Origin: Acidobacteriota bacterium
Lineage (GTDB): Bacteria > Acidobacteriota > UBA890 > WLXD01
DNA: 64,000 bases
Direction of reading: 5' to 3'
Assembly: GCA_963666055.2 (NCBI GenBank)
Contig: CAXWPH010000012.1
Span: 320,001 to 384,000 of the forward strand
In this document: one piece after another, positions 2,565-59,572 of the stretch
Layout: each line of letters begins with the position of its first letter
Position numbering within the stretch: position 1 is the stretch's first letter
The notes under the pieces: generated by a model
What the model saw: only the letters and a program-made list of their open reading frames with translations
What the model was told of the DNA's origin: nothing
Database searches by the model: none
Made by a program: the position numbers and the translations under genes

Positions 2565-3371
2565 GTGACCCTTACTCGCGACCTCGCCCTCGCCGAGACA
2601 ATCGCGCGCGAGGCGTCCGAGATCCTGATGCGCTACTACCGAGGCGACTATCGGGTCGAGGCCAAGGCCGGTGGGGAGCCCGTTACCGAGGCCGACCGCG
2701 CCGCCAACGAGCACATTGTCGCTCGACTGCAGGAGCACTTCCCCGACGATGGCATTCTCGCCGAGGAATCTGCTGACCCGGCGGCGATCGTCGGCAAGCG
2801 GCGCGTTTGGATGGTGGACCCGATGGATGGCACCAAGGAGTTCACTCACCACCTAACCGAGTTCGCCGTGATGATCGGACTAGTGGTGGAGGGCACACCA
2901 GTGCTCGGCGTCGTCGCACAGCCCGCGGAGGAGATTGTTTACCGCGGCATCGTCGGCGAGGGGGCGGAACGCGTGCACCCGGATGGCGTCGATACGATGC
3001 GCGTCGGAACGACCAGCGAGCTCGCCGAGCTGACCTTGATCTGTAGTCGTTCGCACCTCCCCGAGATCGTCGAGCGCATGAAAGACGAGCTCGGCATCTC
3101 GCGCATGCTGCAGTCCGGCAGCGTCGGCCTGAAGATCGGCAAGATCGGTACCGGGGTTTGCGACCTCTATTTGCAGCCGGCATCCGGCACGAAGCTCTGG
3201 GACGCCTGCGCTCCGGAGGCGATTCTGCACGCCGCCGGTGGCCGCCTCACCGACTTCGACGGCCACCCGATCGACTATGACCCTCAGGACATCGTGAATC
3301 GCCGCGGCCTGCTGGGGAGCAACGGCACCCGCCACGACGACTTGGTGCAACGACTGCGCGGCTACTTCTAG
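2565..3371 (+). CDS. cysQ: 3'(2'),5'-bisphosphate nucleotidase CysQ (inositol monophosphatase family)
   Basis: PVTEAD, ILAEE, WMVDPMDGTKEF, CSRSH, GSVGLK, WDACAPEAIL; adjacent to sat/cysC. Confidence 0.85.
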   Translation: MTLTRDLALAETIAREASEILMRYYRGDYRVEAKAGGEPVTEADRAANEHIVARLQEHFPDDGILAEESADPAAIVGKRRVWMVDPMDGTKEFTHHLTEFAVMIGLVVEGTPVLGVVAQPAEEIVYRGIVGEGAERVHPDGVDTMRVGTTSELAELTLICSRSHLPEIVERMKDELGISRMLQSGSVGLKIGKIGTGVCDLYLQPASGTKLWDACAPEAILHAAGGRLTDFDGHPIDYDPQDIVNRRGLLGSNGTRHDDLVQRLRGYF

Positions 3372-3415
3372 CAGGGTGCTGAAGGAACTCCGGTGGGTCG
3401 GCGCGTGGGTCTGGC
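3368..3415 (+). repeat. Degenerate left-end remnant of the 271-bp MITE-like repeat
   Basis: CTAG-CAGGGTGCTGAA...GTGGGTCTGGC resembles CTAG-CAGGCCGTGCTGAAAGTGTGGTGGGTCTGGC; begins at the cysQ TAG stop. Confidence 0.5.
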
Positions 3416-3439
3416 TGGCCAGATCAAGGGCGATCGGAC

Positions 3440-3481
3440 TTGCATTAGGTTCTAATTGGGTTACGATTAGGACCCAATCAG
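3440..3481 (+). promoter_or_regulatory. Putative promoter with tandem 11-bp operator repeats
   Basis: AT-rich island: TTGCAT-N16-TACGAT overlapped by ATTAGGTTCTA/ATTGGGTTACG/ATTAGGACCCA and inverted repeat ATTGGGT-N10-ACCCAAT, just upstream of an RHH-like gene. Confidence 0.6.
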
Positions 3482-3512
3482 TGCCCTGCTACAGCTCATT
3501 CCGTCGCTGCCC

Positions 3513-3731
3513 ATGCCCGACCGTGTAAGCATCAAGATTCCCCGGCCGCTCTACAATCGGCTGCAGCGGGTCATCGACGGGTCGGGCTTCAGCTCGGCCA
3601 CCGACTTCATCGTCTACGTGCTTCGCGACCTGGTCGGGAGCCTGGAACCGGAGGCATCGTCGTCCTCCGATCTCAGCCAGGACGAGCTCGTGGCGATCCG
3701 CAAGAAGCTAGAAAACCTCGGATACCTCTAA
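3513..3731 (+). CDS. Small CopG/ribbon-helix-helix-like protein with C-terminal LxxLGYL tail
   Basis: VSIKIPRPLYNRLQRVIDGSGFSSATDFIVYVLRD is an RHH pattern; ends IRKKLENLGYL; stop overlaps sat start. Confidence 0.75.
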   Translation: MPDRVSIKIPRPLYNRLQRVIDGSGFSSATDFIVYVLRDLVGSLEPEASSSSDLSQDELVAIRKKLENLGYL

Positions 3732-4900
3732 TGATCAAAGCTCACGGCGGGCGCCTCATCGAGCGCTTCGCATCAGCAACCGGACACACCGAGTGGCTCG
3801 AGCGTATCGACAAGCTCCCTGCCGTCACCATGAACCGCCGAGAAACCTCCGATCTGGAGATGATCGCCACCGGTGCCCTGAGCCCGCTCGAGGGTTTCAT
3901 GGGGCGCGACGACTACGAGCACGTATGCGCCCACGGCCGCTTGCCCGGCGGCCTGCCGTGGACGATACCGATCACGCTGGCGGTCGATTCTTCGACCGCG
4001 GCCGCCGTCGGGATCGGCGACCCGGTGGCGCTCAAGGGGCCCGACGGCACGCTACACGGTGTGCTCGAGTTGGCCGACGTCTACCAGCCCGACAAAGATC
4101 GCGAGGCGCTCCAGGTACTGCTGACGAATGACGACGCGCACCCCGGAGTCGCATACTTACGGTCGACCGGCGACACCTACCTGGGCGGCAGGATCACGCT
4201 GCTCCAGCGCCCGCATCACGCCAGCTTCGAGAGCTCGCGGCTCGATCCGCGCGAAACCCGTGTGCTGTTCAAGGCCAAGGGCTGGAACAGCGTCGCCGCC
4301 TTCCAGACCCGAAACCCGATTCACCGCGCCCACGAGTACCTGCAGAAGTGTGCTCTCGAACTGGTCGACGCACTGTTGATTCATCCGATCATGGGCGAGA
4401 CCAAGTCGGACGATATCCCGGCCGACGTGCGGCTCGAGTGCTACCAAACGCTGCTGCACAACTACTACCCGAAGGCACGCGTTGCACTGTCGATTCTGCC
4501 GGCGGCGATGCGCTATGCCGGCCCTCTTGAGGCCATCTTCCACGCCATCGTAAGAAAGAATTACGGCTGCACGCACTTCATCGTCGGCCGTGACCACGCC
4601 GGCGTCGGCGGCTACTACGGCACCTACGATGCGCACACCATCTTCGAGAAATTCGAAGCGCTCGAGATCGGCATCACGCCGCTCTTCTTCGACCACGCTT
4701 TCTACTGCCACGCTTGCCAGAACATGGCGTCACAGAAGACGTGTCCGCACGACAAGGAACAGCACGTGTTCCTGAGCGGCACGAAAATCCGCGACATGCT
4801 GGCACGCGGTGAAGAGCTGCCAAAGGAATTTACCCGGCCCGAGGTAGCGGAGATCTTGCGTCGTCACTATCAGGGGTCGACTGCCGGCGCCGTGGTGTGA
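3731..4900 (+). CDS. sat: Sulfate adenylyltransferase (ATP sulfurylase, Sat type)
   Basis: LSPLEGFM, FQTRNPIHRAHEY, MRYAGP, HFIVGRDHAG, Zn motif CHAC-x8-CPH, SGTKIR. Confidence 0.96.
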   Translation: MIKAHGGRLIERFASATGHTEWLERIDKLPAVTMNRRETSDLEMIATGALSPLEGFMGRDDYEHVCAHGRLPGGLPWTIPITLAVDSSTAAAVGIGDPVALKGPDGTLHGVLELADVYQPDKDREALQVLLTNDDAHPGVAYLRSTGDTYLGGRITLLQRPHHASFESSRLDPRETRVLFKAKGWNSVAAFQTRNPIHRAHEYLQKCALELVDALLIHPIMGETKSDDIPADVRLECYQTLLHNYYPKARVALSILPAAMRYAGPLEAIFHAIVRKNYGCTHFIVGRDHAGVGGYYGTYDAHTIFEKFEALEIGITPLFFDHAFYCHACQNMASQKTCPHDKEQHVFLSGTKIRDMLARGEELPKEFTRPEVAEILRRHYQGSTAGAVV

Positions 4901-4975
4901 CCGGTCGGTGAGGATACTAGCGCCAGCGCGTCGGCAATCCGGCGCCGGCCGAGGCACCACAAGGAGTTTGCTCAG

Positions 4976-5575
4976 ATGAAGGGCTTCACGCTCTGGTTTA
5001 CAGGGCTTTCGGGCTCCGGCAAGTCGACGCTGGCCACGGCAGTCGAAGAGGTTCTCCTCGAACGCGGTCTGCGGGTCGAGATCCTCGACGGCGACGAGGT
5101 ACGGACGAACCTGTCCAAAGGACTCGGCTTCTCGAAGGAAGACCGCGACACCAACATCCGCCGTATCGGCTACGTCTGTAATCTGCTGAGCCGCAACGGC
5201 GTGGCGGCGGTCTCCGCGGCCATTTCTCCCTATCGAGAGATCCGCGACGAGTTACGCGGATCGATCGAGAACTTCGTCGAGGTCTACGCGCGCTGCAGTA
5301 TCGAAGAGCTCGCACGACGGGATCCGAAGGGGCTATACAAACGAGCCCTGGCAGGTGAAATCCCCAATTTCACAGGCGTTTCCGATCCCTACGAGGAACC
5401 GGTCAACCCCGAGGTCGTCTGCGATACGGAGAAGGAGACGCCGGAGGAGAGCCTGGAAAAGATCGTGCGAAGCCTCGAGCTCATGGGGTACATTCCGCCC
5501 GCCGAGGACCACCACACCAGTCCGGAACAAGAAGAGGCGATCCGCGCACGGCTAGAATCGCTCGGATACCTCTGA
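4976..5575 (+). CDS. cysC: Adenylyl-sulfate (APS) kinase with C-terminal LxxLGYL extension
   Basis: [53 protein letters not shown]; ends [11 protein letters not shown]. Confidence 0.96.
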
Positions 5576-5594
5576 TCGCTCGCCGGGGGCGCCA

Positions 5595-6887
5595 ATGTCG
5601 CGCAGCAAGCGACTCTGTCTGATCGGGCTCGACGGAGTACCGGAACAGCTGCTGCGACGCCTTGCCGACGACGGCGTCATGCCACGCTTGGCGGAGCGCA
5701 TCGCCGGCGCACACCTACGCTCGATGCGCGCCTCATTGCCGGAAATCTCCTCGGTGAGCTGGTCGAGCTTCATGACCGGGGCGGGTCCCAGCGAGCATGG
5801 GATCTACGGCTTCACCGATATCGAGCCTCAGAGCTACGGGCTCACGTTTCCGAGCTTTGCCGATGTGCGCATTCCAACCTTGTGGGACCGGCTCGGCCGC
5901 CGCGGCGTAACCTCGGTAGTGGTGAATCAGCCGGCAACCTATCCAGCTCGCTCGATTCCCGGCGTCATGGTCTCGGGCTTCGTTGCAGTGGATCTCACTC
6001 GCGCGGTCAAGCCACTACGGTGGCTGGGTCCGTTGCGACGCATGAACTACCGCATCGATATCGATACCGCACGCAGCCGCCAGGACCACGATTGGCTCAT
6101 GCGCGACCTGCGGCAGACGCTTCGAACAAGGCGCGAAGCGGTAATGCGGCTCTGGGACGAGGTCGATTGGCGCTTCCTGCAAGTCGTGGTTACCGGCACA
6201 GACCGCCTCTATCACTACCTCTGGGATGCGGTCGAGGACACGCGGCATCCGCGCCACCAGCAAACACTCGACTACCACCACGATGTGGACACCTTGGTGG
6301 GCGAGATATGGGACCGGTTCGCGGCCGAAGAGACCGATCCGGAGTCCTGCTTCTGGATGCTTTCGGACCACGGTTTCTGCGCCATTCGCCAGGAGGTGCA
6401 GCTGAACGCAGCTCTGAAGAACCTGGGCTATTTGACCCTCGGGGCCGAGGCGCCGGTAGATCTGACCTCACTCGAGCCAACGAGCCGAGCGTTCGCGCTG
6501 GATCCGGGGCGCATCTATCTGAATCGATCCGAACGGTTCGGGCGTGGCACCGTCGCCGAAAGCGATGCGCCGGCGCTCAAATCGGAGATCGCCAACGCGA
6601 TCAAAGAGCTGCGGTATGATGGGCAACGGGTCGTCCGCGAGGTGTTCGATGCTGCGGACATCTACGAACAGGGGCCTTGCTCCGCGCGCGGTCCCGACCT
6701 TGTCGCTCTCGCTTTCCCGGGGTTCGACCTCAAGGCGTCCCCGGCGGCGAGTGAGGTATTCGGACGCAGCGACCTCGTGGGTATGCACACGTACGACGAC
6801 GCCTTCCTCTTGACACCCCACCCCATCGAAGGCGACCTCTGGATCGGCGAGATCGCCGCGCATATTGAACAGGAGTACGACAAGTGA
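5595..6887 (+). CDS. AlkP-superfamily (phosphodiesterase/NPP-like) enzyme, predicted cytoplasmic
   Basis: IGLDG, PEISSVSWSSFMTG, TDRLYH, LSDHGF, GMH; no signal peptide. Confidence 0.85.
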   Translation: MSRSKRLCLIGLDGVPEQLLRRLADDGVMPRLAERIAGAHLRSMRASLPEISSVSWSSFMTGAGPSEHGIYGFTDIEPQSYGLTFPSFADVRIPTLWDRLGRRGVTSVVVNQPATYPARSIPGVMVSGFVAVDLTRAVKPLRWLGPLRRMNYRIDIDTARSRQDHDWLMRDLRQTLRTRREAVMRLWDEVDWRFLQVVVTGTDRLYHYLWDAVEDTRHPRHQQTLDYHHDVDTLVGEIWDRFAAEETDPESCFWMLSDHGFCAIRQEVQLNAALKNLGYLTLGAEAPVDLTSLEPTSRAFALDPGRIYLNRSERFGRGTVAESDAPALKSEIANAIKELRYDGQRVVREVFDAADIYEQGPCSARGPDLVALAFPGFDLKASPAASEVFGRSDLVGMHTYDDAFLLTPHPIEGDLWIGEIAAHIEQEYDK

Positions 6888-9004
6888 GCACGCCGTCCCG
6901 GTTCGTGTCGCGCCTCGTCCTGGCCGTGCTGGCCGTCCTGGCGTACCCGCATGTCGCCGATGCCTACGTTGGTCCCGGAGCCGGCTTCGCGTTTATCAGC
7001 AGCTTCCTGGTGCTGTTCTCGACCATTCTGGCAGTCATCGCCTCGTTGCTGATCTGGCCGTTCCGCACCTTGTGGCGGGCGATCACGCGCCGTACGAAGG
7101 TGGCGCCCAAGATCCGGCGCCTCATCGTCGTCGGGTTCGACGGACAGGATCCGCAGTTAACCGACCGCTTCATGGCCGAAGGCAAGCTGCCGAACTTCAA
7201 GAAGCTGGCCGACATGGGCTGCTACAAGCCATTGAAGACAACGTTCCCGTCGATCTCTCCGGTAGCCTGGTCGTCGTTCTCAACCGGCGCTCACCCTGCG
7301 CGGCACAACATCTACGACTTTCTTGACCGCGACCGCCGCACATATTTGCCGGTGTTGTCATCGACCAAGATCGGTTCGGTCGATCGATTCCTGAACCTGG
7401 GACCGTTTCGTATTCCGCTCGAAAAACCGGAGCTCCGACTGCTACGCAAGTCGAAGCCGTTCTGGAGCGTCCTCGGCGAGCACAATATTTGGAGCACCGT
7501 GCTTCGGGTGCCGATCACCTTCCCACCCGACCGGTTCTATGGCGCCCAGCTCTCGGCGATGTGCGTCCCGGACCTTCTCGGAACGCAGGGCACGTTCCTG
7601 CTCTTCACCACCCGGCCCGAGAGCACCAAGTTCAAAGAGGGCGGCCAGCGAGTGCCGGTAACCATGGAGGGCGACCGCGTCACGGGGACCTTGCTGGGAC
7701 CCGAGAATATCCTGCGCAAAGGCAGCCCACCGCTGGAGTTACCGATCGTCGCCGAGCTCGACCGTGGCGCCAGCCGCGCGCGTGTCGCTTTCGGTTCCGA
7801 GAGCGTTGACCTGACCCTCGGCGAGCTTTCCGACTGGGTACCGCTGACGTTTCCTGCGGCGCCCGGCATCAAGGTCCGCGGCATCGGGCGCGTCATGATG
7901 ACCGAGATGAACGGCGACTTCTCCATGTACATGACGCCCATAGCGCTCGACCCGGAGCGACCGGCGATGCCGATTTCCCACCCCAACTACTACTCCGTGT
8001 ACCTGTCGAAGATGCAGGGAAAGTACTCGACGCTAGGGCTTGCCGAAGATACTTGGGCACTGAACGAGAAGGTGATCGACGACCGCCACTTCAAGGAACT
8101 GACGTTCGACATCGACGACGAGCGCAAGGACATGTTTTTCGCCGCGATGGAGCGGTTGCGCCGCGGCTGCTTGGTGTGCGTGTTCGACGCCACCGACCGC
8201 ATCCAGCACATGTTCTGGCGCTACATCGACGAGGGACATCCGGCCGACGATGGCAGCCAGGACGACTGTCGCGACACCATCGAGGAGCTCTACGTACGCA
8301 ACGACAAGCTCGTCGGTGAGGTGTTGGAGAGAGTCACCGAGGATGACCTGCTGATGGTGCTATCAGACCACGGCTTTACCTCATTCCGCCGTGGCCTGAA
8401 CCTCAATCGGTGGCTCCTCGACAACGGCTACCTCGCTCTCAAGGACGGCGCCGACGGCACCACCGAGTGGCTCCGCGCAGTCGACTGGTCGCGTACCAAA
8501 GCCTACTGTCTCGGGCTGTCGGGCATGTTCTTCAACATCAAGGGCCGCGAGTCGCAGGGCATCGTCGAACGCTCTGAAGTCGATTCCCTGAAAGCGGAGA
8601 TCGGCGCCAAGCTCAAAGGGCTGCGCGACGAGGAGAACAACGAGGTGGCCATCGTCGAGGCGTTCGATACCGCCCAGCTTTACCGGGGTCCGTATCTCGA
8701 GAACGCTCCCGAATTCATCATCGGATACAACCGCGGCTACCGTACTTCCTGGGATTGCGCCACCGGCGTAGTCGATGCGCCGCTATTCGAAGACAACGTG
8801 AAGGCGTGGAGTGGCGACCACTGCGTCGACCCACGGCTCGTTCCGGGAGTGTTGTTCTGTAATCGCGCCATCGACGTCGACGATCCTGCGCTCATCGACA
8901 TCGCCCCAACGGCGCTACAGCAGTTCGGTGTCCCGACTCCCAAGTACATGGACGGCCGACCGCTCTTCAAAGAGGGCGCCGAGGCCGATTCGGCTGGGTC
9001 TTGA
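6884..9004 (+). CDS. AlkP-superfamily enzyme with N-terminal signal-like segment and transmembrane anchor
   Basis: HVADA-YVGPGAG then hydrophobic helix and basic patch; VGFDG, PSISPVAWSSFSTG, TDRIQH, LSDHGF, WSGDH. Confidence 0.85.
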   Translation: MSTPSRFVSRLVLAVLAVLAYPHVADAYVGPGAGFAFISSFLVLFSTILAVIASLLIWPFRTLWRAITRRTKVAPKIRRLIVVGFDGQDPQLTDRFMAEGKLPNFKKLADMGCYKPLKTTFPSISPVAWSSFSTGAHPARHNIYDFLDRDRRTYLPVLSSTKIGSVDRFLNLGPFRIPLEKPELRLLRKSKPFWSVLGEHNIWSTVLRVPITFPPDRFYGAQLSAMCVPDLLGTQGTFLLFTTRPESTKFKEGGQRVPVTMEGDRVTGTLLGPENILRKGSPPLELPIVAELDRGASRARVAFGSESVDLTLGELSDWVPLTFPAAPGIKVRGIGRVMMTEMNGDFSMYMTPIALDPERPAMPISHPNYYSVYLSKMQGKYSTLGLAEDTWALNEKVIDDRHFKELTFDIDDERKDMFFAAMERLRRGCLVCVFDATDRIQHMFWRYIDEGHPADDGSQDDCRDTIEELYVRNDKLVGEVLERVTEDDLLMVLSDHGFTSFRRGLNLNRWLLDNGYLALKDGADGTTEWLRAVDWSRTKAYCLGLSGMFFNIKGRESQGIVERSEVDSLKAEIGAKLKGLRDEENNEVAIVEAFDTAQLYRGPYLENAPEFIIGYNRGYRTSWDCATGVVDAPLFEDNVKAWSGDHCVDPRLVPGVLFCNRAIDVDDPALIDIAPTALQQFGVPTPKYMDGRPLFKEGAEADSAGS

Positions 9005-11022
9005 GTGCGCCTCGCGGCGGCCGGCCAACGATGCGATCCGTCATGCTGTGGAGCGTTCTGCTGGTCGTGTCGACGAGCAGCGCCTGCGGCAGCAGCTCGA
9101 GATCAGACGGACCGAACGTCATCGTGCTGGGGATAGACGGCCTCGACTACACCCTGACGCGGGAGCTTATCGACGCCGGCCGCTTGCCGAACTTCAAGCG
9201 GCTGGCGGACTCGGGCGCCTTCGGGCCTCTGGAAACGTCGCTGACTCCGCAGAGTCCGGTGGCCTGGTCGAACTTCATTACCGGCATGGACTCCGGCGGC
9301 CATGGGATCTACGACTTCCTGCATCGTGACCTGGAGCGTGATCCGCCGCTGCCCTTCGGTTGGCCCTATCAGGCGATGACCAAGGAGACTCCGGTGGGCC
9401 GGTCGCTCACGCTTGGCGGCTGGTCCTTCCCTCTCAGCGGCGGCGACATCCAACTGGCGCGATACGGCACACCGTTCTGGCAATTGCTCACCGACAACGG
9501 TATCGACAGCACTCTCATACGCATGCCCGCCAACTTTCCGCCCGTCGGCGCCGGTACCCGCGAGCTCTCGGGCATGGGGACCCCGGACCTCGGCGGCACG
9601 CCCGGTGAGTTCACGTTCTTCTCCACCGATCGCCGCCAATTCATGAAGACCGACGTATCGGGCGGGCATATCTACCCCGCCGACATCATCGATGGCGTGT
9701 TCAACGGAACCCTGTACGCCCTCACCGACAATCCCTTCACGCTGGAAGAGGGCGATGCGGTCGCAGCCGACTTCGAGGTATTCATCGATCCCGATAACCC
9801 CGTTGCAAAGATCGTAATCAACGACCAAGAGCTCATCCTGCAGGAAGGCGAGTGGAGCCCTTGGGTAAGTGCCGACTTTGATCTCGTGCCTTACGTAATG
9901 TCGATATCGGGCTCGGTGCGCTTCTACCTCAAGTCGGTACGTCCGGACTTCGGGCTTTACATCACGCCGATTCAGATCGATCCTCTCAACCCCGGGTCGG
10001 CAATCTCGCACCCGGACTCGTTCGCCACCGAGCTGGGCAACGCCACCGGCCGCTACTACACACAGGAGATGCCACAGGACACCAAGGCGCTCCAGTGGGG
10101 CGTCTTCGACCTCGACGAGTACCTGACGCAGGTCACGCTCACTCGCGCCGAGACGACGGCGCAGTACAAGTATCTCCTCGAGAACTGGACCGGCGGCTTT
10201 CTGTTCTCCTATTTCGGGAGCGCCGACCAAATCTCGCATGTCATGTGGGGCTTGACGCGCGACCCCGAGCACCCTGCATACGTGGCCGAGAGTCACGACC
10301 AATACCGTGACGTCATTCCGAGCTTGTACGAGGAGTTCGACGCGCTGGTCGGCTACACGCTGGATCGCATCGCCGACGATACCCTGTTGGTCGTCATGTC
10401 GGACCACGGGTTTGGCAGCTGGCGCCGATCGTTCAACCTCAATACGTGGCTGCACGATAACGGCTATATGGCACTGCAGCGTCGCACGCGCCTACCGATT
10501 CGGGAGTTCTTCGCCGGCGTCGACTGGGACGCCACTCAGGCGTACAGCGTCGGCATCAGCGCCCTGTACTTGAACATGCGCGGCCGTGAGCCGCAGGGCT
10601 TGGTGGCGCCCGGCGACCGCGACGAGTTACTCCTTCAGCTCGAACAAGATTTGTTGGCGACCGTGGACCCGGCCACCGGTGAGCCGGCCATCACCCGGGT
10701 GTTCATTCGTGAACGCGATTTCCACGACCGCGGCCACTTAGAGATAGGGCCCGACATCATCGTCGGCTACGCACCGCATGTGCGCGGTTCTGGCAACGGC
10801 GCTCTCGGCGGGCTGGCAGCGGAGTTCATTGTCGACAACACCGCCGATTGGTCAGGCGACCACATCTGGGACCCGACGGCGGTTCCGGGTGTGCTGCTGA
10901 CCAACCGCGCGCTGATACGGCCGGCGTCGTCGCTGCAGAACCTGGCAGCATCTCTGCTCGCCGAGTACGGCATCGACGGCTTCCGGGACGGCAGCACCCC
11001 AGTCACGGTTGAGACAAATTGA
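9001..11022 (+). CDS. AlkP-superfamily enzyme, probable lipoprotein (start may be ATG 9031)
   Basis: Signal peptide with SSAC lipobox-like site; LGIDG, PQSPVAWSNFITG, ADQISH, MSDHGF, WSGDH; paralogous to the preceding gene. Confidence 0.82.
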   Translation: MSAPRGGRPTMRSVMLWSVLLVVSTSSACGSSSRSDGPNVIVLGIDGLDYTLTRELIDAGRLPNFKRLADSGAFGPLETSLTPQSPVAWSNFITGMDSGGHGIYDFLHRDLERDPPLPFGWPYQAMTKETPVGRSLTLGGWSFPLSGGDIQLARYGTPFWQLLTDNGIDSTLIRMPANFPPVGAGTRELSGMGTPDLGGTPGEFTFFSTDRRQFMKTDVSGGHIYPADIIDGVFNGTLYALTDNPFTLEEGDAVAADFEVFIDPDNPVAKIVINDQELILQEGEWSPWVSADFDLVPYVMSISGSVRFYLKSVRPDFGLYITPIQIDPLNPGSAISHPDSFATELGNATGRYYTQEMPQDTKALQWGVFDLDEYLTQVTLTRAETTAQYKYLLENWTGGFLFSYFGSADQISHVMWGLTRDPEHPAYVAESHDQYRDVIPSLYEEFDALVGYTLDRIADDTLLVVMSDHGFGSWRRSFNLNTWLHDNGYMALQRRTRLPIREFFAGVDWDATQAYSVGISALYLNMRGREPQGLVAPGDRDELLLQLEQDLLATVDPATGEPAITRVFIRERDFHDRGHLEIGPDIIVGYAPHVRGSGNGALGGLAAEFIVDNTADWSGDHIWDPTAVPGVLLTNRALIRPASSLQNLAASLLAEYGIDGFRDGSTPVTVETN

Positions 11023-11033
11023 CGGTGCAGGCG

Positions 11034-11097
11034 CTAGCTGGCCATGGTGAGAGCGTGGTGGGTCTGGCAAGTGGCACTTGCGGGCAGGGGCAAGAAG
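11034..11097 (+). repeat. Degenerate left-end remnant of the 271-bp MITE-like repeat
   Basis: CTAG-CTGGCCATGGTGAGAGCGTGGTGGGTCTGGC...CTTGCG...GGCAAGAAG aligns with the first ~60 nt of the full copies. Confidence 0.6.
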
Positions 11098-11125
11098 CAA
11101 CGACAACGCTAACAGGAGACGAAGG

Positions 11126-11320
11126 ATGTTCGGAGGCGGCAAGATCAAATTGGACAGTGGCCTACTGAACCGTGTCAGGAAGTATGCGGACATAGCCGGC
11201 TACTCCTCGGTCGAGGAGTTCATTACCTATGCGCTCGAGAAGGAGCTCGCCGTCCTCGAGGAGGCCGACTCCGAGGAAGAGATCCGCAAGAAGCTCCAGG
11301 GGCTCGGCTACATTTCCTGA
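11126..11320 (+). CDS. Second small RHH-like protein with C-terminal LxxLGYI tail
   Basis: KIKLDSGLLNRVRKYADIAGYSSVEEFITYALEKEL...EEEIRKKLQGLGYIS; paralog of 3513..3731; AGGAG SD upstream. Confidence 0.75.
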   Translation: MFGGGKIKLDSGLLNRVRKYADIAGYSSVEEFITYALEKELAVLEEADSEEEIRKKLQGLGYIS

Positions 11321-11341
11321 CCTGACAACGAGCACATCACG

Positions 11342-12181
11342 ATGAACGCCATTCTCGGCGCTGTGAACGGGCTGCTGCGCCCCCTGTTCGACCTGATGCT
11401 GCTGCCCTTTCGGCAGCTACACCCGATGATCGGGCTGACCATCGTGTCGCTGGGGTGCGCGGTGCTCATGCTGCTCGGATACCGCGCCACCTCCAATCAG
11501 CCGGCGGTTGAGCGCGTCAAACGCAGGATCGCCGCCGGCCTGTTCGAGATCCGCCTGTTCAACGACGACATCTTGGCGATCCTACGTGCTCAGGGCGGCA
11601 TCCTGCGCAATAACATGACCTATCTCGGCCTGAACCTGGTGCCGATGGTGTTCATGATGCTGCCGTTTGTCCTGGTCATTGCCCAGCTGCAGTTCCACTA
11701 CGGATATCGAGGCCTGACGGTTGGCGAGCCGACCGTTCTGCAGGTCAGCCTCGGGGACGGACTAGCCGCCAGCAGCGCGCCAGAGGCCGAGGTCACCTTG
11801 CCCGCGGGCCTACGGCTCGACAGCCCGCGGGTGTGGATGCCGGCGCGAAATCAGCTCGCCTGGCGGATCGTCGCCGACAGCCCAGGTGACTTCGAGGTGC
11901 AGATCGAAACCGCCGGCCAACGCGTCACCAAGCGGATCGTGGTATCCGACGCTGTCGTGCGTCGATCGCCCTATAGGCTGAAGCCCGGTTTCGTGAACAC
12001 GCTGCTGTACCCGGCCGAGCCCTCCCTGCCCAGCGACGGGATCGTCATCGAGATCAAGGTCAACTACCCGACACGCGCTGTCGGTCTTTTTGGTTTCGAG
12101 ACCGACTGGCTGATCGTCTTTTTCCTCTTGACGATGTCCCTCGCCTTCGCTCTCAAGGGCCGCTTCGGTGTAACCATCTAG
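11342..12181 (+). CDS. Membrane protein, EMC3/TMCO1/DUF106-like architecture with a soluble beta-rich insert
   Basis: Amphipathic helix-TM1-coiled hairpin (SNQPAVERVKRRI...)-Met-rich TM2 (LVPMVFMMLPF)-insert-DWLIVFFLLTM TM3. Confidence 0.55.
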   Translation: MNAILGAVNGLLRPLFDLMLLPFRQLHPMIGLTIVSLGCAVLMLLGYRATSNQPAVERVKRRIAAGLFEIRLFNDDILAILRAQGGILRNNMTYLGLNLVPMVFMMLPFVLVIAQLQFHYGYRGLTVGEPTVLQVSLGDGLAASSAPEAEVTLPAGLRLDSPRVWMPARNQLAWRIVADSPGDFEVQIETAGQRVTKRIVVSDAVVRRSPYRLKPGFVNTLLYPAEPSLPSDGIVIEIKVNYPTRAVGLFGFETDWLIVFFLLTMSLAFALKGRFGVTI

Positions 12182-12189
12182 TGGCCTGC

Positions 12190-13605
12190 CTACTGCAGGT
12201 AGCCGAGGTCGCGCAAGCGCGCGATGTCTTCCGGCGATACGGTCCGCGCCTGGCGTTCGCTCGGCATGTTCTCTAACAGAGTAGCCAGCACGTCGCGCAT
12301 CTGATCGCGCCGATCGGCGAGCTCTGGCGCGGCGATCAAGTTGACAAGCTCGTACGGGTCACTGCGCAGGTCATAGAACTCGTCGTCGCCCTCTTCGTAG
12401 AGAAGGTACTTGTACTCGATGTCCTGGACCGCGTACCGCTCGCCGGGCTCGTAGTTGCCGCGCTGCTGCCGCCGCATCGAGGCGTCCTCGTAATAGCTGC
12501 GCTCGGCGAAGGCAAACCATCCGGCATCGCGTGGTCGGCCACCGCCCAGATACTGCGTGAGAGATCGGCCCTGCGTGGGCATGATCTGGTTTGGGGTCAG
12601 CTCAAAGATCGCCGCCACCGTCGGCAATACGTCGACATGTTGAACGACGCGCTGGTGTACGCGAATCCCCACCGCGCCGTCAGCGCTCCAGAACAGCAGC
12701 GGTACCCAGAGCTGGGCGTTGTAGATCTGCTTGGAATGCCCGAACCAATCATGAGCGCCGAGTCCCTGACCATGATCCGAGGTGACAATCCAGAGGGCCT
12801 CGTCGTTGAGACCGGTGGCGTCGAAGTGCGCAAACAAGCGCGCCAGCTGCCGGTCCGCATACATGATCTCGGCGTCATAAGCGGCCACATCGTTGCGCAC
12901 GACGCTATCCTCGTCGACGGCCGGAATGCCACGGCTTGCCAGCAGATCACGATACGCCTGCTCGCCATACTCGGCGATCATGCCCTCGACCTCCTCGAGA
13001 ACCTCGTACGGCGGCTGAAGCGGCTTGTGGGGGTCGTACACATGGACCCAGAGAAAGAACCTCTCTCGACCGTCAGCGACCGCCTCGTCGACCCAGGCCA
13101 ATGCACGATCGACAGTGTCGCCCGCGGCGCGGTACAGCTTGCGCCCCCCCTCCGTCTGGCGATCGACCCGATGCTGATCCCAAACCTCGAAACCCTGCCC
13201 AACGTTGCCCCCCAGCGCCGCGTCCGTGCTCACGAACGCCGCCGTCGTGTACCCCGCTGCACCTAGTAGCTCTGCCATCGTCTCGAACTCCTCGTCGAGA
13301 ACCAGACCGTTGTTCTGAACGCGGTGTTGCACTGGATACAGCGACGTGAACAGCGACGCATGCGAAGGCTTCGTGGTCGCGGAATGCGCATAGGCGCGCG
13401 TGAACAGCGTCCCTTCCGCAGCCAGTCGATCCAGGAACGGCGTCGTGGCGATGGGATAACCAAAGCTCGACATGTGGTCGGCGCGCAAGGTATCGACAGT
13501 GATCAGCACCAGTCGCTGCGGTACCGCCATCTCCGGAGTGCTCGCCGAGCAGGCTGCAACCAATCCCGCCAGCGCCATGGTTGCCGCCACGGCCACCCTT
13601 GTCAT
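12190..13605 (-). CDS. Sulfatase-like hydrolase/transferase lipoprotein (no FGly motif) with LxxLGYL tail
   Basis: LVAAC lipobox; ITVDTLRADH, TTKPSHASLFT, HVYDPH, TSDHG, VDVLPT, EFYDLRSDPYE; ends IARLRDLGYLQ. Confidence 0.88.
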   Translation of the reverse strand: MTRVAVAATMALAGLVAACSASTPEMAVPQRLVLITVDTLRADHMSSFGYPIATTPFLDRLAAEGTLFTRAYAHSATTKPSHASLFTSLYPVQHRVQNNGLVLDEEFETMAELLGAAGYTTAAFVSTDAALGGNVGQGFEVWDQHRVDRQTEGGRKLYRAAGDTVDRALAWVDEAVADGRERFFLWVHVYDPHKPLQPPYEVLEEVEGMIAEYGEQAYRDLLASRGIPAVDEDSVVRNDVAAYDAEIMYADRQLARLFAHFDATGLNDEALWIVTSDHGQGLGAHDWFGHSKQIYNAQLWVPLLFWSADGAVGIRVHQRVVQHVDVLPTVAAIFELTPNQIMPTQGRSLTQYLGGGRPRDAGWFAFAERSYYEDASMRRQQRGNYEPGERYAVQDIEYKYLLYEEGDDEFYDLRSDPYELVNLIAAPELADRRDQMRDVLATLLENMPSERQARTVSPEDIARLRDLGYLQ

Positions 13606-14342
13606 TCCCCGTCCTCACCCAAGCTCATCGACTCACCGGAGTTGAGATAGCCATACAGCACCGCCGCAACCACGCCGCCGAGCAGCGGCCCCAGCCAGTA
13701 TACCTAGTGAGAAGTCCAGTACCCGGCCGCGAGCGCCGGCCCGAAGGCGCGCGCCGGGTTGAGCGCGGCGCCCGTCAAGGGACCGCCGACAAGCACGGCG
13801 GCGCCCAGCGTGGCACCGATGACCAAGCCGTGCACATGCTGCGGAGCGCGCCGGGCAGCCGCCATCTGCAGGACTACGAACACCAGCACGAGCGTCAGGA
13901 TCATCTCCAGGAAAACGCCCGTCCCGACCTCCACGCCGGGTCCCAGCGCCGGCGCGCCAAGGTGCACAGGCTGCCACACGTCGGCGCCGAAAGTCGCTGC
14001 CAGCATCAGGCCGGCAACGAGCGCTCCCATTAACTGGGCCGCGAAGTAAGCGTAGGCCCGCGACGGATCGATCGCTCGCACGAGCAGCGCCCCCAACGTT
14101 ACCGCCGGATTGACGTGCGCCCCGGACACGTGTCCGAGCGAGCTGACGATGGCCGCCAACGTCAGCCCCTGAGCCAACGCTATCCCCACGATGCCGACCT
14201 CGCCGCCACTGTAGGAGTCGGTACAGATCGCCGCCGCCGCCATGAATGTGAGGACGAACGTCCCAACACCCTCCGAGACCACGCACACGGCGAGCTCGCG
14301 GCTCATCCGAGCCCCGAGCAGGCGGCGCCAGCTCACCTCCAT
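13602..14342 (-). pseudogene. MIP-family aquaporin interrupted by an in-frame TAG at 13704-13706
   Basis: SGAHVNPAVT and ALNPARAFGP; frame continues H-[TAG]-VYWLGPLLGGVVAAVLY to TGA 13602-13604 overlapping the next start. Confidence 0.8.
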
Positions 14343-18551: not shown

Positions 18552-20048
18552 ATGGGCAATGTCCTCGCGCTCGACCAGGGAACCACCAGCAGCCGTGCGA
18601 TAGTTTTCAACGCCGACGGCCTCACGCTCGGCCAGGCGCAGCAGGAGTTCGAACAGATCTTCCCGCGCCCGGGTTGGGTAGAACACGACCCGTCCGAGAT
18701 ATGGCAAACGCAGCTCGCGGTGGCGCGAGATGCCCTCGCAGCCGCCGGACTAGCGGCGCACGAGGTCGCCGCGATCGGCATCACCAACCAGCGCGAGACC
18801 ACCGTGCTGTGGGACCGTGATACCGGTGAGCCGATCCACAACGCCATTGTCTGGCAGGATCGGCGCACAGCGGAGCGTTGCGACGAGCTTCGATCCGGGT
18901 CGACGGCTACGTTGTTCCGAGAGTGCACGGGGCTGCAGATTGACCCGTACTTCTCCGGTACGAAGGTGGCATGGCTGCTCGATCACGTTGACGGGGCGCG
19001 CCAACGCGCCGAGGCGGGCGAATTGGCGTTCGGCACGGTCGACTCTTGGTTGCTCTGGAACCTGACCGGGGGCCGCGTCCACGCCACCGACGCCAGCAAT
19101 GCCTCGCGCACACTCCTCTTCGACATTCACACGCAGACCTGGCACCCCGAGCTGCTGGCTGCCCTCGACGTGCCCGCCGCGGTACTCCCCACCGTACGCG
19201 ACTCGAGCGAAGTGTACGGCGAAACCGATCCTGGTTTGCTCGGTGGCGCCATTCCGGTGGCCGGCATCGCCGGCGATCAGCAGGCGGCGCTGTTCGGCCA
19301 GATGTGCGTGCAACCCGGCATGTCCAAGAACACCTACGGTACCGGCTGCTTCCTGCTCATGAACACCGGCCCCGAGCCGGTGGCGTCCGACAACGGCCTG
19401 CTCACGACCGTCGCGTGGCGGCTGGGCGGACAGACGACATACGCACTCGAAGGCTCGGTGTTCATCGGCGGAGCGGCGGTGCAATGGCTGCGCGATGGCC
19501 TCGGAATCATCGACTCCGCGTCGGACGTAGAGACGCTGGCAGCGCAAGTGGACGACAGCGGTGATATCTACTGCGTCCCGGCGTTCGCCGGCCTCGGGGC
19601 GCCGCACTGGGATGCCTATGCGCGCGGCGCCGTGCTCGGGATCACCCGCGGCACCAGTGCGGCCCACCTGGCTCGAGCCACCCTCGAAGGAATAGCCCAC
19701 CAGGTCGCCGACGTGCTCGAGGCGATGGTGGCCGACTCCGGGGTGCAGATTCCGGAGCTGCGCGTCGACGGCGGCGCGGCAGCCAACGATCTACTCCTCC
19801 AGATCCAGGCAAACCTCATCGGTGCCCGGGTCGTGCGACCCACGCAGCTCGAATCGACGGCGCTCGGTGCTGCCTACCTAGCGGGGCTAGCGACCGGTGT
19901 ATGGGACAACACCGACGAGCTCGCTCGCCGATGGGGCATCGAATCCCTGTTCGAGCCGCAACTAGCAGATGAGGAGGTGGCCTCGATGCGTTCAGGCTGG
20001 AGCAAAGCGGTGCAACGGTGCCGTGGCTGGGCCCGCGAAGGGCCGTGA
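18552..20048 (+). CDS. glpK: Glycerol kinase
   Basis: [56 protein letters not shown]. Confidence 0.96.
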
Positions 20049-21605
20049 ACCGCGACACGATGCTGCGCCGGCTCGACGAGCCGGGGCGCTGGGACATCGT
20101 CGTTGTGGGAGGCGGAGCCACCGGCCTGGGATGCGCTGTAGACGCTGCAGCGCGCGGCTACCGAACGCTGCTGGTGGAACGCGCCGATTTCGCCTCGGGC
20201 ACCTCGAGCCGCAGTACTAAGCTCGCCCACGGCGGCGTGCGCTATCTGCAGCGCGGCGACGTGACGCTGGTTACCGAGGCGCTCCATGAGCGCGGATTGC
20301 TGCGACGCAACGCACCGCACCTGGTGCACGACCTGCAGTTCGTGGTGCCCACTTACGACTGGTGGGAAGCGCCGTTCTACGGCATCGGCTTGAAGGTCTA
20401 CGACCTGCTGGCGGGCAAGCTCGGCTTCGGCACATCGAGGATCCTGTCCAGGGAGCAGACCATCGAGCGCATCCCGACGATCGAGACCGAGGGGCTACGC
20501 GGCGGTGTCTTGTACTTCGACGGCCAGTTCGACGACGCCAGGCTGGCCATCAACCTGGCGCAGACGGCCGCCAAGCAGGGCGCCGCGCTGCTCAACTACG
20601 CCGCCGTCACCGAGTTGCTGCACCGGGACGGCTTGATCGATGGGGTGGTGGTCGAGGACCTCGAGAGCGCCGGCCGGCGCGAGATCCGCGCCCGCTCGGT
20701 GGTCAACGCCACTGGGGTCTTCGCTGACTCGATCCGCCGCCTCGACGACGCCGCGATAAAGCCGATCATCCGCGCCAGCCAGGGCATACACATCGTGCTC
20801 GATCGCGACTTCCTGCCGGGCGACAGCGCCATCATGGTTCCCCACACCGACGACGGACGGGTGTTGTTCGCCATCCCCTGGCACGGGCGGGTGCTGGTGG
20901 GCACTACCGATACGCCGGTCGAATCGATCGAGTCCGAGCCCCGGCGGTTTTCCCAACGAGGTCGATTTCCTGTTGCGTCATTGCGCCCGTTACTTGACGC
21001 GTGATCCGCAGGCGAGCGACGTGCTCAGTGTCTTCGCTGGCCTACGGCCGCTCGTCCACTCGGGAGACGGTAAGTCGACCGCCGAGATCTCACGCGACCA
21101 TACCGTCAGCGTCTCGCGCTCGGGGCTGGTAACCATTGCTGGCGGCAAATGGACCACCTATCGAAAAATGGCCCAGGACACCATCGACCAGGCCGCCGTA
21201 GTCGGCGGCCTTCCCACGCGCCCCTGCGTTACCAGCGAGATCAACGCGCACGGCTACCGTGCACACGCCGAGCGCTTCGGGAGGCTGGCGCCCTATGGCT
21301 CCGACGCACCGGCGATCGAGCAGCTGGCGGCATCCGATCCCGACTGCGCAGCGCTCCTTCATCCGAGCTTCGAGCACCGTGCCTGTGAGGTCATCTGGGC
21401 AGTGCGCGAGGAAATGGCCCGCACCGTCCACGACGTGCTGGCGCGCCGCACGCGCATGCTGTTGCTGGATGCGCGTGCCAGCATCGAGGCGGCCCCGACG
21501 GTCGCAGCTATTCTGGCGCGCGAGTTGTGCCGCGACGAGCGCTGGGCGCAAGACCAGGTGCTCGAATACGAACACCGGGCGCGCGGCTATCTGGTATCAG
21601 GCTAG
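20045..21605 (+). pseudogene. glpD: FAD-dependent glycerol-3-phosphate dehydrogenase, frameshifted near 20945-20955 (real or sequencing error)
   Basis: VVGGGATG, GTSSRSTKLAHGGVRYL, DDARL in frame 1; EVDFLL...FAGLRPL, SRDH, GGKWTTYRKMA, RRTR in the shifted frame. Confidence 0.85.
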
Positions 21606-55886: not shown

Positions 55887-55946
55887 GCCAACACCAGCGG
55901 CGAGTCGGCTCTACAGCATCGGCAGGGCGTGGCAGAATCTCGCGCC

Positions 55947-56780
55947 ATGCTGAGCACCTCGTCCGAAGAGCCGACAAGCGGCTATCTGATCCCCATAGGC
56001 GGCGCCGAGAAGAAGGCGCGTGACCCGGTAATCCTCAGTCGCTTCGTCGAGATGTGCGGCGGGCGCGACGCGCGTATCGTCGTGGTGCCGACCGCCTCCA
56101 AGATGCGTACGACGGGGCCGCGGTACGCGCGCATCTTTACCGAGCTCGGCGCCGGTAACGCTACCTCACTGCCGTTCGCCGATCGCGCCGACTGCAATCG
56201 CGCCGATTGGCTACGCGTCATCGCCGAGGCGACCGGCATCTTTCTCACCGGCGGCTCGCAGCTACGGCTGAGTCGAACGCTCGGTGGAACACCGGTAACT
56301 AGCGCGTTGAGAGCAGCATCGAACCGCGGCGTCCACATCGCCGGCACCTCGGCGGGCGCAAGCTATCTTTCCGAGCACATGATCGCTTTCGGTGAGAAGG
56401 GCGCCTCACCCCGCACCCACATGGTGGCGCTGGCGTCGGGAATCGGCCTCACCCGCGACTTCACTATCGATCAACACTTCCGCGAGCGCGACCGACTCGG
56501 TCGCCTGCTAACCGTACTGGCATACAACCCCTCCATCGTCGGCATGGGACTCGACGAGAACACCGCCGCCTTCATCGCGCCGGACCGGACCATGCAGATC
56601 GTTGGTACCGGATCGTGCACTCTGGTCGACGGCTCCGATCTCGAGCACTCATCGGTGGGAGAGCAAGCCGGCGATCCGGTCTGTCTGCTCGGTGTGCGCC
56701 TGCACATACTGTTGCATGGCTGCACGTACGACATACAGACTCGAAGCCCGCTTCCGCCGAGGGAGACACAGAGCCGATGA
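55947..56780 (+). CDS. cphB: Cyanophycinase
   Basis: IGGAE, PTAS, TGGSQLRL, AGTSAGA, DQHFRERDRLGRL, GLDENT. Confidence 0.93.
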   Translation: MLSTSSEEPTSGYLIPIGGAEKKARDPVILSRFVEMCGGRDARIVVVPTASKMRTTGPRYARIFTELGAGNATSLPFADRADCNRADWLRVIAEATGIFLTGGSQLRLSRTLGGTPVTSALRAASNRGVHIAGTSAGASYLSEHMIAFGEKGASPRTHMVALASGIGLTRDFTIDQHFRERDRLGRLLTVLAYNPSIVGMGLDENTAAFIAPDRTMQIVGTGSCTLVDGSDLEHSSVGEQAGDPVCLLGVRLHILLHGCTYDIQTRSPLPPRETQSR

Positions 56781-59569: not shown

Positions 59570-59572
59570 GGC

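Follow-up and report, generated by a model that had tools for sequence, protein, structure and literature searches.

A conserved sulfate-linked membrane cassette in Acidobacteriota and a possible tyrosine relay for envelope sulfation

Introduction

The subject of this report is a gene cluster at positions 2565 to 13605 of a stretch of 64,000 nucleotides from an Acidobacteriota bacterium (assembly GCA_963666055.2, contig CAXWPH010000012.1, positions 320,001 to 384,000 of the forward strand), which at its full length is called the window below. The cluster brings together genes for the synthesis of 3'-phosphoadenosine 5'-phosphosulfate (PAPS), three enzymes of the alkaline phosphatase (AlkP) superfamily, two small ribbon-helix-helix (RHH)-like proteins, a membrane protein and a sulfatase-fold lipoprotein. 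PAPS is cytoplasmic, and in the papers that we found there is no description of bacterial sulfation outside the inner membrane from the cell's own sulfate. We report that four of these genes, encoding AlkP-2, AlkP-3, RHH2 and an Oxa1-type membrane protein, form a real, widespread and undescribed sulfate-linked membrane cassette, which in most lineages is accompanied by a classical sulfotransferase (ST), and we weigh how such a cassette might work.

Genes of the locus

The locus opens on the plus strand with a CysQ-like phosphatase of the inositol monophosphatase family (2565..3371; PF00459, E 3.6e-54), whose likely role, judged from its family, is to clear the by-product 3'-phosphoadenosine 5'-phosphate (PAP); its best NCBIfam match, TIGR01331, reaches 176 bits, under the cut-off of 228.8. 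RHH1 (3513..3731, plus) is a 72-residue RHH-like protein recognised from its open reading frame (ORF) and tail pattern, an acidic helix with a LENLGYL end (3708-3728), and has no match in Pfam and NCBIfam profile searches. Next on the same strand are Sat (3731..4900), the ATP sulfurylase that forms adenosine 5'-phosphosulfate (APS; PF01747 and PF14306, with TIGR00339 over its cut-off), and CysC (4976..5575), the PAPS-forming APS kinase (TIGR00455 over its cut-off), which bears an added LGY tail (5552-5572) placed after the protein's own last helix (5474-5494). As their family matches show, Sat and CysC together should make PAPS. Three PF01663 proteins follow, all on the plus strand: AlkP-1 (5595..6887), a soluble protein of the AlkP and nucleotide pyrophosphatase/phosphodiesterase (NPP) fold with Ser52; AlkP-2 (6884..9004), with a signal peptide, a Y-V-G-P-G-A-G motif that holds Tyr28 (6965-6985), one transmembrane (TM) helix and an AlkP domain with Ser125; and AlkP-3 (9001..11022), an exported paralogue of AlkP-2 by hhalign with Ser85, whose start is TTG at 9001 or alternatively ATG at 9031. 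The plus-strand series closes with RHH2 (11126..11320), a 64-residue RHH-like protein recognised by the conservation of its tail, an acidic helix with LQGLGYIS (11294-11317), and with a membrane protein (11342..12181) that profile and model assign to the Oxa1 superfamily (DUF106/EMC3/TMCO1-like), with an inserted beta-rich domain. Convergent to these, on the minus strand, lies a sulfatase-fold lipoprotein (12190..13605; PF00884) with Thr78 and an LRDLGYLQ tail (12193-12216).

All ten ORFs had been placed correctly by a first-pass annotation of this DNA. Its observation that the second and third AlkP genes overlap the preceding stop codon holds, with four-nucleotide overlaps of GTGA and TTGA, and so do the metal ligands and Ser nucleophiles that it noted, which are D13, D203, H207, D258, H259 and H398 with Ser52 at the nucleophile position in AlkP-1; D86, D438, H442, D495, H496 and H646 with Ser125 in AlkP-2; and D46, D409, H413, D468, H469 and H621 with Ser85 in AlkP-3. 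Two-metal ligands, a Ser/Thr nucleophile and PF01663 matches over the cut-off place all three in the NPP-like part of the superfamily, and across 61 AlkP-2 and 58 AlkP-3 sequences the conservation of the ligands and Ser is complete or no lower than 90%. No promoter or terminator signals above chance were seen at the locus. The arrangement itself is not a product of chance, because it is conserved in relatives.

The conserved cassette

We surveyed 69 related loci centred on AlkP-2, 53 of which have enough flanking DNA for core counts; the alignments keep 52-61 of the 69 rows, those with X residues or only a short match being omitted. Most of these loci are from Acidobacteriota, and others are from Gemmatimonadota, Myxococcota, Binatia and Eisenbacteria. 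The core is nearly constant, with AlkP-3 in 52/53, RHH2 in 53/53 and the membrane protein in 52/53 loci. Few loci hold sat (2/69), cysC (6/69), AlkP-1 (3/69) or the CysQ-like gene (5/69) beside AlkP-2, so the linkage of AlkP-2 and AlkP-3 to sat and cysC that had been proposed is not general, and these two genes are ruled out as part of the conserved core. The locus thus consists of two modules, the AlkP-2 cassette core and AlkP-1 with sat and cysC. In a sample of 151 genomes of the phylum, 44 have the membrane protein of the cassette (one row of these tallies is the genome G063, on which alone no claim depends), and at E 1e-30 there are 1180 matching clusters at 50% identity.

The N-terminus of AlkP-2 is built to a fixed plan, in which a signal peptide ending in AxA is followed by Y[IV]GPGAG, an uncharged TM helix and a basic stretch. 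The motif is present in 66 of 68 AlkP-2 sequences, the two exceptions being N-terminally short ORF calls, and the net charge after the TM helix has a median of +8 and a minimum of +5 (n=66). These features predict a periplasmic Tyr and a cytoplasmic AlkP domain. AlkP-3 is predicted to be periplasmic, since 37 of 60 relatives have a lipobox-like Cys and others have different export signals, including twin-arginine-like ones. AlkP-3 and AlkP-2 match with an hhalign probability of 100 and form sister clades (SH-aLRT 97) in a quick version of the AlkP tree with 31 hand-picked rows; the closest solved relative of AlkP-2 is distant (best E 2e-4).

The tail Tyr of RHH2 is invariant in 58 of 58 sequences, and the protein is a candidate sulfuryl carrier on this evidence. 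It has no Pfam match, and no PDB sequence matches it or its tail (best E 0.1); its Atlas neighbours are automatically named as CopG-family, with PF01402 as the lead at 0.86, on 28% of that cluster. The profile of the membrane protein matches the archaeal DUF106 protein MJ0480 (PDB 5c8j) at E 1.8e-9, and PF01956 is found in 5 of 52 members of its family, the window protein alone having no Pfam match. Its model (pLDDT 94.6) runs TM1, coiled coil, TM2, beta domain and TM3, with 7tut_8, a chain of a multipass translocon that we take to be TMCO1, as best fold match (a modest Z of 8.4, root-mean-square deviation (rmsd) 3.9, 136 residues aligned); Foldseek returned solely immunoglobulin-like matches, to the inserted domain. 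By homology and by a modelled three-TM core with a coiled coil, the protein belongs to the Oxa1 superfamily and DUF106. This identity, the opposite faces predicted for AlkP-2 and AlkP-3 and the two Tyr motifs had escaped the first-pass annotation, which had the genes right.

The partner sulfotransferase

A classical ST is found in 55 of the 69 AlkP-2 loci, and in 51 of the 63 with enough upstream DNA. In each of the 53 loci where the distance is measurable it is divergent to AlkP-2, being encoded on the opposite strand, and in 50 of these it lies within 1.5 kb. The locus STs are 45-60% identical to their orthologue on contig C2 of the source genome (C2:146272-~146904), the only PF00685 sulfotransferase there. 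By strong matches, 38 of 40 cassette genomes have an orthologue (one partial), among them 12 of the 14 with none at the locus itself; across the sampled genomes of the phylum, an ST is found in 39 of 151 and in 32 of the 44 with the cassette. It had been claimed that the system does without a classical sulfotransferase. Inside the window, genome-wide searches indeed find no match for a sulfotransferase, cysH or sulfite reductase, but as a statement about the system the claim fails, given the ST in most AlkP-2 loci and on contig C2 of the source genome itself; such clusters are usually not free of one, an outcome that the first-pass annotation had itself named as refuting its proposal. In other organisms, gene fusions tie the same parts together. 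Among the best 120 longer ST relatives there are ST-AlkP-2 proteins, AlkP-LGY-TPR-ST proteins (58 with AlkP plus LGY) and two CysC-ST-LGY proteins, and the predicted cytoplasmic position of the AlkP-2 domain fits the ST-AlkP-2 fusions because both fused domains would then be cytoplasmic.

The ST has about 205 residues, PF00685 and an invariant SGLPRSGTS loop, and its fold and PAPS-binding loop are those of a P-loop sulfotransferase. The top three fold matches of its model are the tyrosylprotein sulfotransferases (TPSTs) TPST1, TPST2 and a tick TPST (Z 13.7, 13.4 and 13.3; rmsd 3.2-3.8; 171-175 residues aligned), and TPST2/1 are the top six matches of its profile (best E 2.8e-4). The likeness to TPST1/TPST2 (PDB 5wri, 3ap3, 8w5z) thus extends from fold and profile to the shared G-x-P-R-S-G-T PAPS loop, whereas the ST is small, only 17-18% identical and without a membrane anchor. 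Mevalonate-pathway-like genes, read from the sequence, lie a few kb from the contig C2 gene (G000 C2:150906-154377, L070).

AlkP-1 and its neighbours

AlkP-1, which has no hydrophobic segment and forms its own clade apart from AlkP-2 and AlkP-3 in the quick tree, was surveyed in 80 metagenome loci, many on short contigs (37 are 8 kb or more). cysC is present in 48 of these (tailed in 44 of the 48), sat in 29 and the cassette in 19-20, and tailed RHH1 relatives occur in 16/80; RHH1 is a candidate cytoplasmic carrier or docking protein. The ST is found in 3 of the 80 and in none of the 19-20 that hold the cassette. Across the sampled genomes of the phylum AlkP-1 is found in 31 of 151, 11 of them without the cassette, and the 44 cassette genomes divide into 21 with the ST only, 9 with AlkP-1 only, 11 with both and 3 with neither, tallies in which kin are not independent, so that p-values overstate. 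In two genomes without the ST (G068 and G169), AlkP-1 occupies the usual ST position. AlkP-1 may thus be an alternative, ST-independent loader. The earlier idea that AlkP proteins consume PAPS without a sulfotransferase survives in this narrower form, for AlkP-1 in nine cassette genomes, and is not supported for AlkP-2 and AlkP-3.

Several side observations concern these loci. In 9 loci a tailed CysD/CysH-like gene precedes AlkP-1. Proteins of this kind (PF01507) ending in LxxLGY[FM] take the place of CysC upstream of AlkP-1 in L101, L125-L127, L129, L134-L136, L146 and L164, hinting that AlkP-1 may use APS too and that the LGY tail may descend from the CysD C-terminus. A fourth, tail-less AlkP with Thr (T-[IV]-P-A-W), absent from the window, is flanked by sat and cysC in many of the AlkP-1 loci (L082, L084, L091, L093, L097 and others), and LGY-tailed DUF2061 proteins are found downstream of AlkP-1 in L107, L109, L110 and L144.

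Tyrosine motifs and tailed sulfatase-fold proteins

An acidic helix with LxxLGY ends 15 of the 50,037 mechanically called ORFs of the source genome, namely RHH1, CysC, RHH2, the convergent lipoprotein, ten more sulfatase-fold proteins and one AlkP. With a pattern that leaves the Tyr free, 177 of 186 tails have Tyr at this position and one has Phe, against Tyr in 4 of 116 internal controls; the linker Tyr is kept in 57 of 57 sequences and the N-tail Tyr in 79 of 80. In CysC, the appended tail has GY in 35 of 35 sequences and the native helix end in 25 of 35. The tail also separates two kinds of sulfatase-fold protein, being present on 11 Thr-type proteins of the genome and on none of its 11 Cys-type sulfatases; seven more Thr-type proteins have a looser internal LGY copy. 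The convergent lipoprotein has TKPSH with Thr78 where a formylglycine type-I sulfatase would have C/S-x-P-x-R, and is a candidate terminal sulfotransferase by these sequence features, one of 11 such in the genome. By established sulfatase chemistry, release through formylglycine is not open to an enzyme with Thr, and transfer by Thr-type proteins is for that reason plausible; Ser-substituted sulfatases, in work of Recksiek from 1998, reportedly trap the sulfo-enzyme. Tailed sulfatase-fold relatives are found in 13 of the 69 AlkP-2 loci, and the convergent gene, missing in the close relatives L001 and L002, is ruled out as a fixed member of the locus.

Each of the 44 cassette genomes carries a tail, if only that of RHH2, and the median is 6 tails, against 1 in the 107 others. 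Long relatives of AlkP-2/3 are found in 95 of the 151 genomes, and the median tail count is 6 with the cassette, 2 with a long relative only and 0 with neither. In tail-rich genomes without the cassette such relatives (L232-L247, 690-800 residues) stand alone, mostly with a signal peptide, in 15 of 15 flanks read of 17.

Further tailed proteins and Tyr peptides were seen along the way. The source genome has an expanded family of tailed Thr proteins of about 800-840 residues with large N-terminal domains (C15:525600, C15:414881, C10:8305, C5:56735, C2:318803, C15:1530349) and fragments of it (C14:37081, C15:1271713), besides a second family with T-L-P-S-H and an internal LGY-like motif, one member of which is split in two (C12:20088-22653). 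Three genomes (G047, G065, G081; L161-L163) have 32-39 LGY tails each and the ST, without the cassette or a long AlkP-3 relative, and in G081 the ST lies directly upstream of a tailed membrane sulfatase-fold gene. Seventeen free-standing membrane peptides of 65-140 residues (L181-L198) show A|Y[ILVM]DPG[TSA]G, a TM helix and a basic end (e.g., L188:8155-8433, L185:7977-8264). They usually lie upstream of a protein of about 465 residues whose match to methyltransferases is weak or absent, and often of a membrane-bound sulfatase-fold protein, a neighbourhood that we presume to resemble rhizobial NoeA/NoeB; the source genome appears to hold both enzyme genes of this set (C15:291666-295000). Eleven longer proteins contain a YxDPG peptide, eight of them AlkP proteins of about 705 residues. 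The free peptides may represent a second tyrosine-peptide system with another cargo.

Sulfate metabolism of the genome

The source genome (G000), 95.7% complete, was searched across its contigs by Pfam profiles. It has no match to PF01507 (the cysH/CysD family) or PF01077 (sulfite reductase), and PF01507 is over its cut-off in none of five relatives; PAPS is for these reasons unlikely to serve assimilation, and an operon for assimilatory sulfate reduction is rejected. PF13469 and PF05935 likewise have no match in this genome, and a search with PF03567 was uninformative, since no control genome matched either. The genome has one arylsulfotransferase-like gene (PF14269; contig C15, L211:5579-6478), whose product could take aryl sulfates, sulfotyrosine for example, as donor. 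All 33 cassette genomes tested (the 44 less the 11 with both ST and AlkP-1) have APS kinase, with a best E at or below 1e-38; of 44 genomes lacking both cassette and tail, 20 have it. The tie to activated sulfate that the first-pass annotation drew is supported by the PAPS that the locus would make, the absent reductive route, the APS kinase of every cassette genome tested, the cysC and sat beside AlkP-1 relatives in 48 and 29 of 80 loci and the existence of sulfatase-fold sulfotransferases (Agl30/Agl31, below), and we regard the cassette as very probably sulfate-linked.

Other features of the window

Beyond the cluster, an aquaporin-family ORF (13704-14342) ends in GYWTSH and seems short for its family, covering 11-204 of the 222 profile positions, a glycerol-3-phosphate-dehydrogenase-like gene (20018-21605) is split across two frames, and a cyanophycinase-like gene followed by two cyanophycin-synthetase-like genes was recognised from sequence at 55929-61309.

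Proposed mechanism and alternatives

We tentatively propose, on the strength of these sequence patterns, that PAPS supply and the conserved membrane cassette may relay a sulfuryl group through Tyr and Ser residues to exported sulfatase-fold enzymes for envelope sulfation. The ST, or AlkP-1 fed by LGY-tailed CysC, would sulfate the tail Tyr of RHH-like carriers, and the metal-bound Ser of the cytoplasmic AlkP-2 would take the sulfuryl group from there. In what is the least certain step, the Y-x-GPGAG N-tail of AlkP-2 would carry the group through the groove of the Oxa1-type protein. The Ser of periplasmic AlkP-3 would then accept it and load the LGY tails of exported Thr-type sulfatase-fold proteins, whose Thr would pass the sulfate to glycans or other acceptors. 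Among the readings weighed, this tyrosine relay is the most likely mechanism, at a little under even chances. Its parts differ in strength: outward delivery of sulfate across the membrane is probable by a narrow measure, while covalent tyrosine carriers are plausible and somewhat doubtful. A bolder statement of the scheme describes an undescribed form of trans-membrane group transfer, in which a TPST-type ST or its AlkP substitute charges LGY carriers, an Oxa1/YidC-family protein swings a Tyr N-tail between twin AlkPs, and LGY sulfotyrosine is the donor for Thr 'sulfatases' that are in fact sulfotransferases, Agl30 and Agl31 of Halobacterium salinarum (below) included; in that entirety it would be unlikely.

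Several observations weigh against such a relay. Its energetics are a real weakness, because the return of sulfate from Ser to Tyr runs uphill without activation at the metal site. The topology comes from sequence rules, and these predict the Tyr of AlkP-2 and its active site on opposite faces of the membrane. One locus (L054) has no AlkP-3 nearby, three cassette genomes have neither the ST nor AlkP-1, and no glycan genes or acceptor pathway consistently flank the cassette in the 69 AlkP-2 loci. The TPST lead among fold matches is tied with the polyketide sulfotransferase 4gox (Z 12.8, within 1 Z). A helix-Gly-Tyr can also be structural, as an internal N.WL...GY motif likewise has Tyr in 58 of 61 AlkP-2 and 53 of 58 AlkP-3 sequences, and the C-termini of CysD-like proteins show a similar GY[FM]. 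Tails, moreover, occur apart from the cassette: 29 of 107 cassette-free genomes have three or more, three of them 32-39, and so do 7 of the 56 genomes with neither the cassette nor a long AlkP-2/3 relative. Finally, 17 of 22 tail-rich cassette-free genomes hold a long AlkP-2/3 relative, and APS kinase was found in 9 of these 17 and not in the other 8, so that tails and an exported hub do not need PAPS, a result that speaks in favour of keeping the catabolic and docking readings below in play.

One rival reading also ends in envelope sulfation but treats LGY and YxGPG as mere docking or assembly tags, with a lipid or small aryl carrier scrambled by the Oxa1-type protein and loaded and unloaded by AlkP-2/3. 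It needs no flipping of a peptide, it shares the genomic links to the ST (adjacency and fusions) and to APS kinase (33/33), tail-less AlkPs adjoin free tailed proteins, and lipid scrambling by insertases, YidC among them, is reported in passages of one paper (PMC11047089). Against it stand the single Phe in place of Tyr among 186 tails, the likeness of the partner ST to tyrosylprotein sulfotransferases above all others, and the lack of a conserved carrier-lipid gene near the cassette. We consider this reading rather unlikely. More conventional roles, with the AlkPs as NPP-type hydrolases of PAPS, APS or nucleotides or as phospho-transferases, the RHH proteins as regulators and the Oxa1-type protein as a dedicated insertase for the AlkP-2 anchor, would suit the complete NPP-type two-metal ligand set, the nearest named relatives (PF01663 and phosphonoacetate hydrolase), the automatic naming of RHH2 neighbours as CopG regulators and the YxDPG peptides that lie beside sulfatase-fold membrane proteins without an ST, AlkP-2/3 or Oxa1-type match. 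They would leave unexplained the adjacency and fusion of the ST, the APS kinase of 33/33 genomes, the tail of Agl30/Agl31 and an invariant tail Tyr on a 'regulator', and are to our minds improbable.

The direction of flow could also be inward and catabolic, in that exported Thr enzymes would strip outside sulfate esters, AlkP-3 would reset them and the cassette would recapture the sulfuryl group towards PAP. The stand-alone exported AlkP-3 relatives of tail-rich genomes, 8 of 17 without an APS kinase match, would fit this, as would a genome with many true sulfatases and an arylsulfotransferase-like gene; the spending of ATP on PAPS in the same operon, the lack of cysH and sulfite reductase to use imported sulfate and the fact that the tailed Agl30/Agl31 add sulfate, according to the main text of PMC11980604, speak for the other direction and make inward flow quite improbable. 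The least probable of the readings, very unlikely as it stands, is that of the first-pass annotation, in which the three AlkPs alone take sulfate from PAPS or APS via seryl intermediates without a classical sulfotransferase or carrier protein. It draws on AlkP-1 loci, where the ST is rare (3/80, and none of the 19-20 with the cassette) and AlkP-1 comes after a tailed CysC or, in 9 loci, a CysD/CysH-like gene, and on the nine cassette genomes with AlkP-1 and no ST. It must contend with an ST that is the usual partner (55/69 loci, 32/44 genomes) and present in the source genome, with AlkP-1 in 11 cassette-free genomes and with an RHH2 as constant as the enzymes of the cassette.

Comparison with known systems

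Among the nearest parallels are two archaeal proteins. Agl30 (VNG1056C) and Agl31 (VNG1057C) of Halobacterium salinarum are AlkP/sulfatase-fold proteins without which, as the main text of the study describes, glycans are not sulfated in vivo, and which add sulfate to a glycan when transferred into Haloferax; that main text is silent on donor and mechanism, the words 'PAPS' and 'donor' having 0 occurrences (PMC11980604). The primers printed there translate to HLEDLGY for Agl30, LEELGY for Agl31 and KELGYIE for VNG1063H. Read from these primers, Agl30 and Agl31 share a C-terminal LxxLGY with the sulfatase-fold lipoprotein of the window, a tail that is not part of the paper's definition of them in the text available; they differ in that Agl31 is cytosolic and that the text describes no membrane cassette (PMC11980604). 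Acyl groups are known to cross membranes on Tyr shuttles, in DltB/DltX/DltD, PatA/PatB and OatA, as set out in sections of PMC12148441, and the logic proposed here is theirs: a donor inside, an invariant Tyr on a short peptide, a Ser enzyme outside and an envelope acceptor. Those shuttles, in the sections cited, use MBOAT or AT3 with SGNH proteins and an acyl cargo, whereas the cassette has AlkPs, a P-loop ST, an Oxa1-type protein and a putative sulfate cargo; no gene of the locus has a Pfam match to MBOAT/AT3 or SGNH.

The membrane protein shares the layout of TM1, coiled coil, TM2 and TM3 with the Oxa1 superfamily (MJ0480, EMC3/TMCO1, PF01956), and differs in being bacterial, in its inserted beta-rich domain and in always standing in an enzyme cassette. 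The AlkPs have the two-metal ligands and Ser/Thr nucleophile of the NPP/PhnA clade (PF01663) and of LtaS, EptA and OpgB, with weak EptA/LtaS matches of the Thr proteins, but the known substrates of those enzymes are phosphoesters. We found no description of the cassette or its tyrosine motifs in the main texts searched, and the passages of a sulfotransferase review that we consulted do not mention it. The cassette matches no described system; its mechanism is one that we infer.

Implications

If the tyrosine relay is true, it would name the donor for enzymes of the Agl30/Agl31 type, namely sulfotyrosine on an LGY tail, and many Thr-type 'sulfatases', among them the 11 tailed proteins of the source genome, would have to be re-annotated as transferases. 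It would likewise give a role to a bacterial DUF106-type protein, and would add sulfate to acyl groups as a cargo of tyrosine shuttles.

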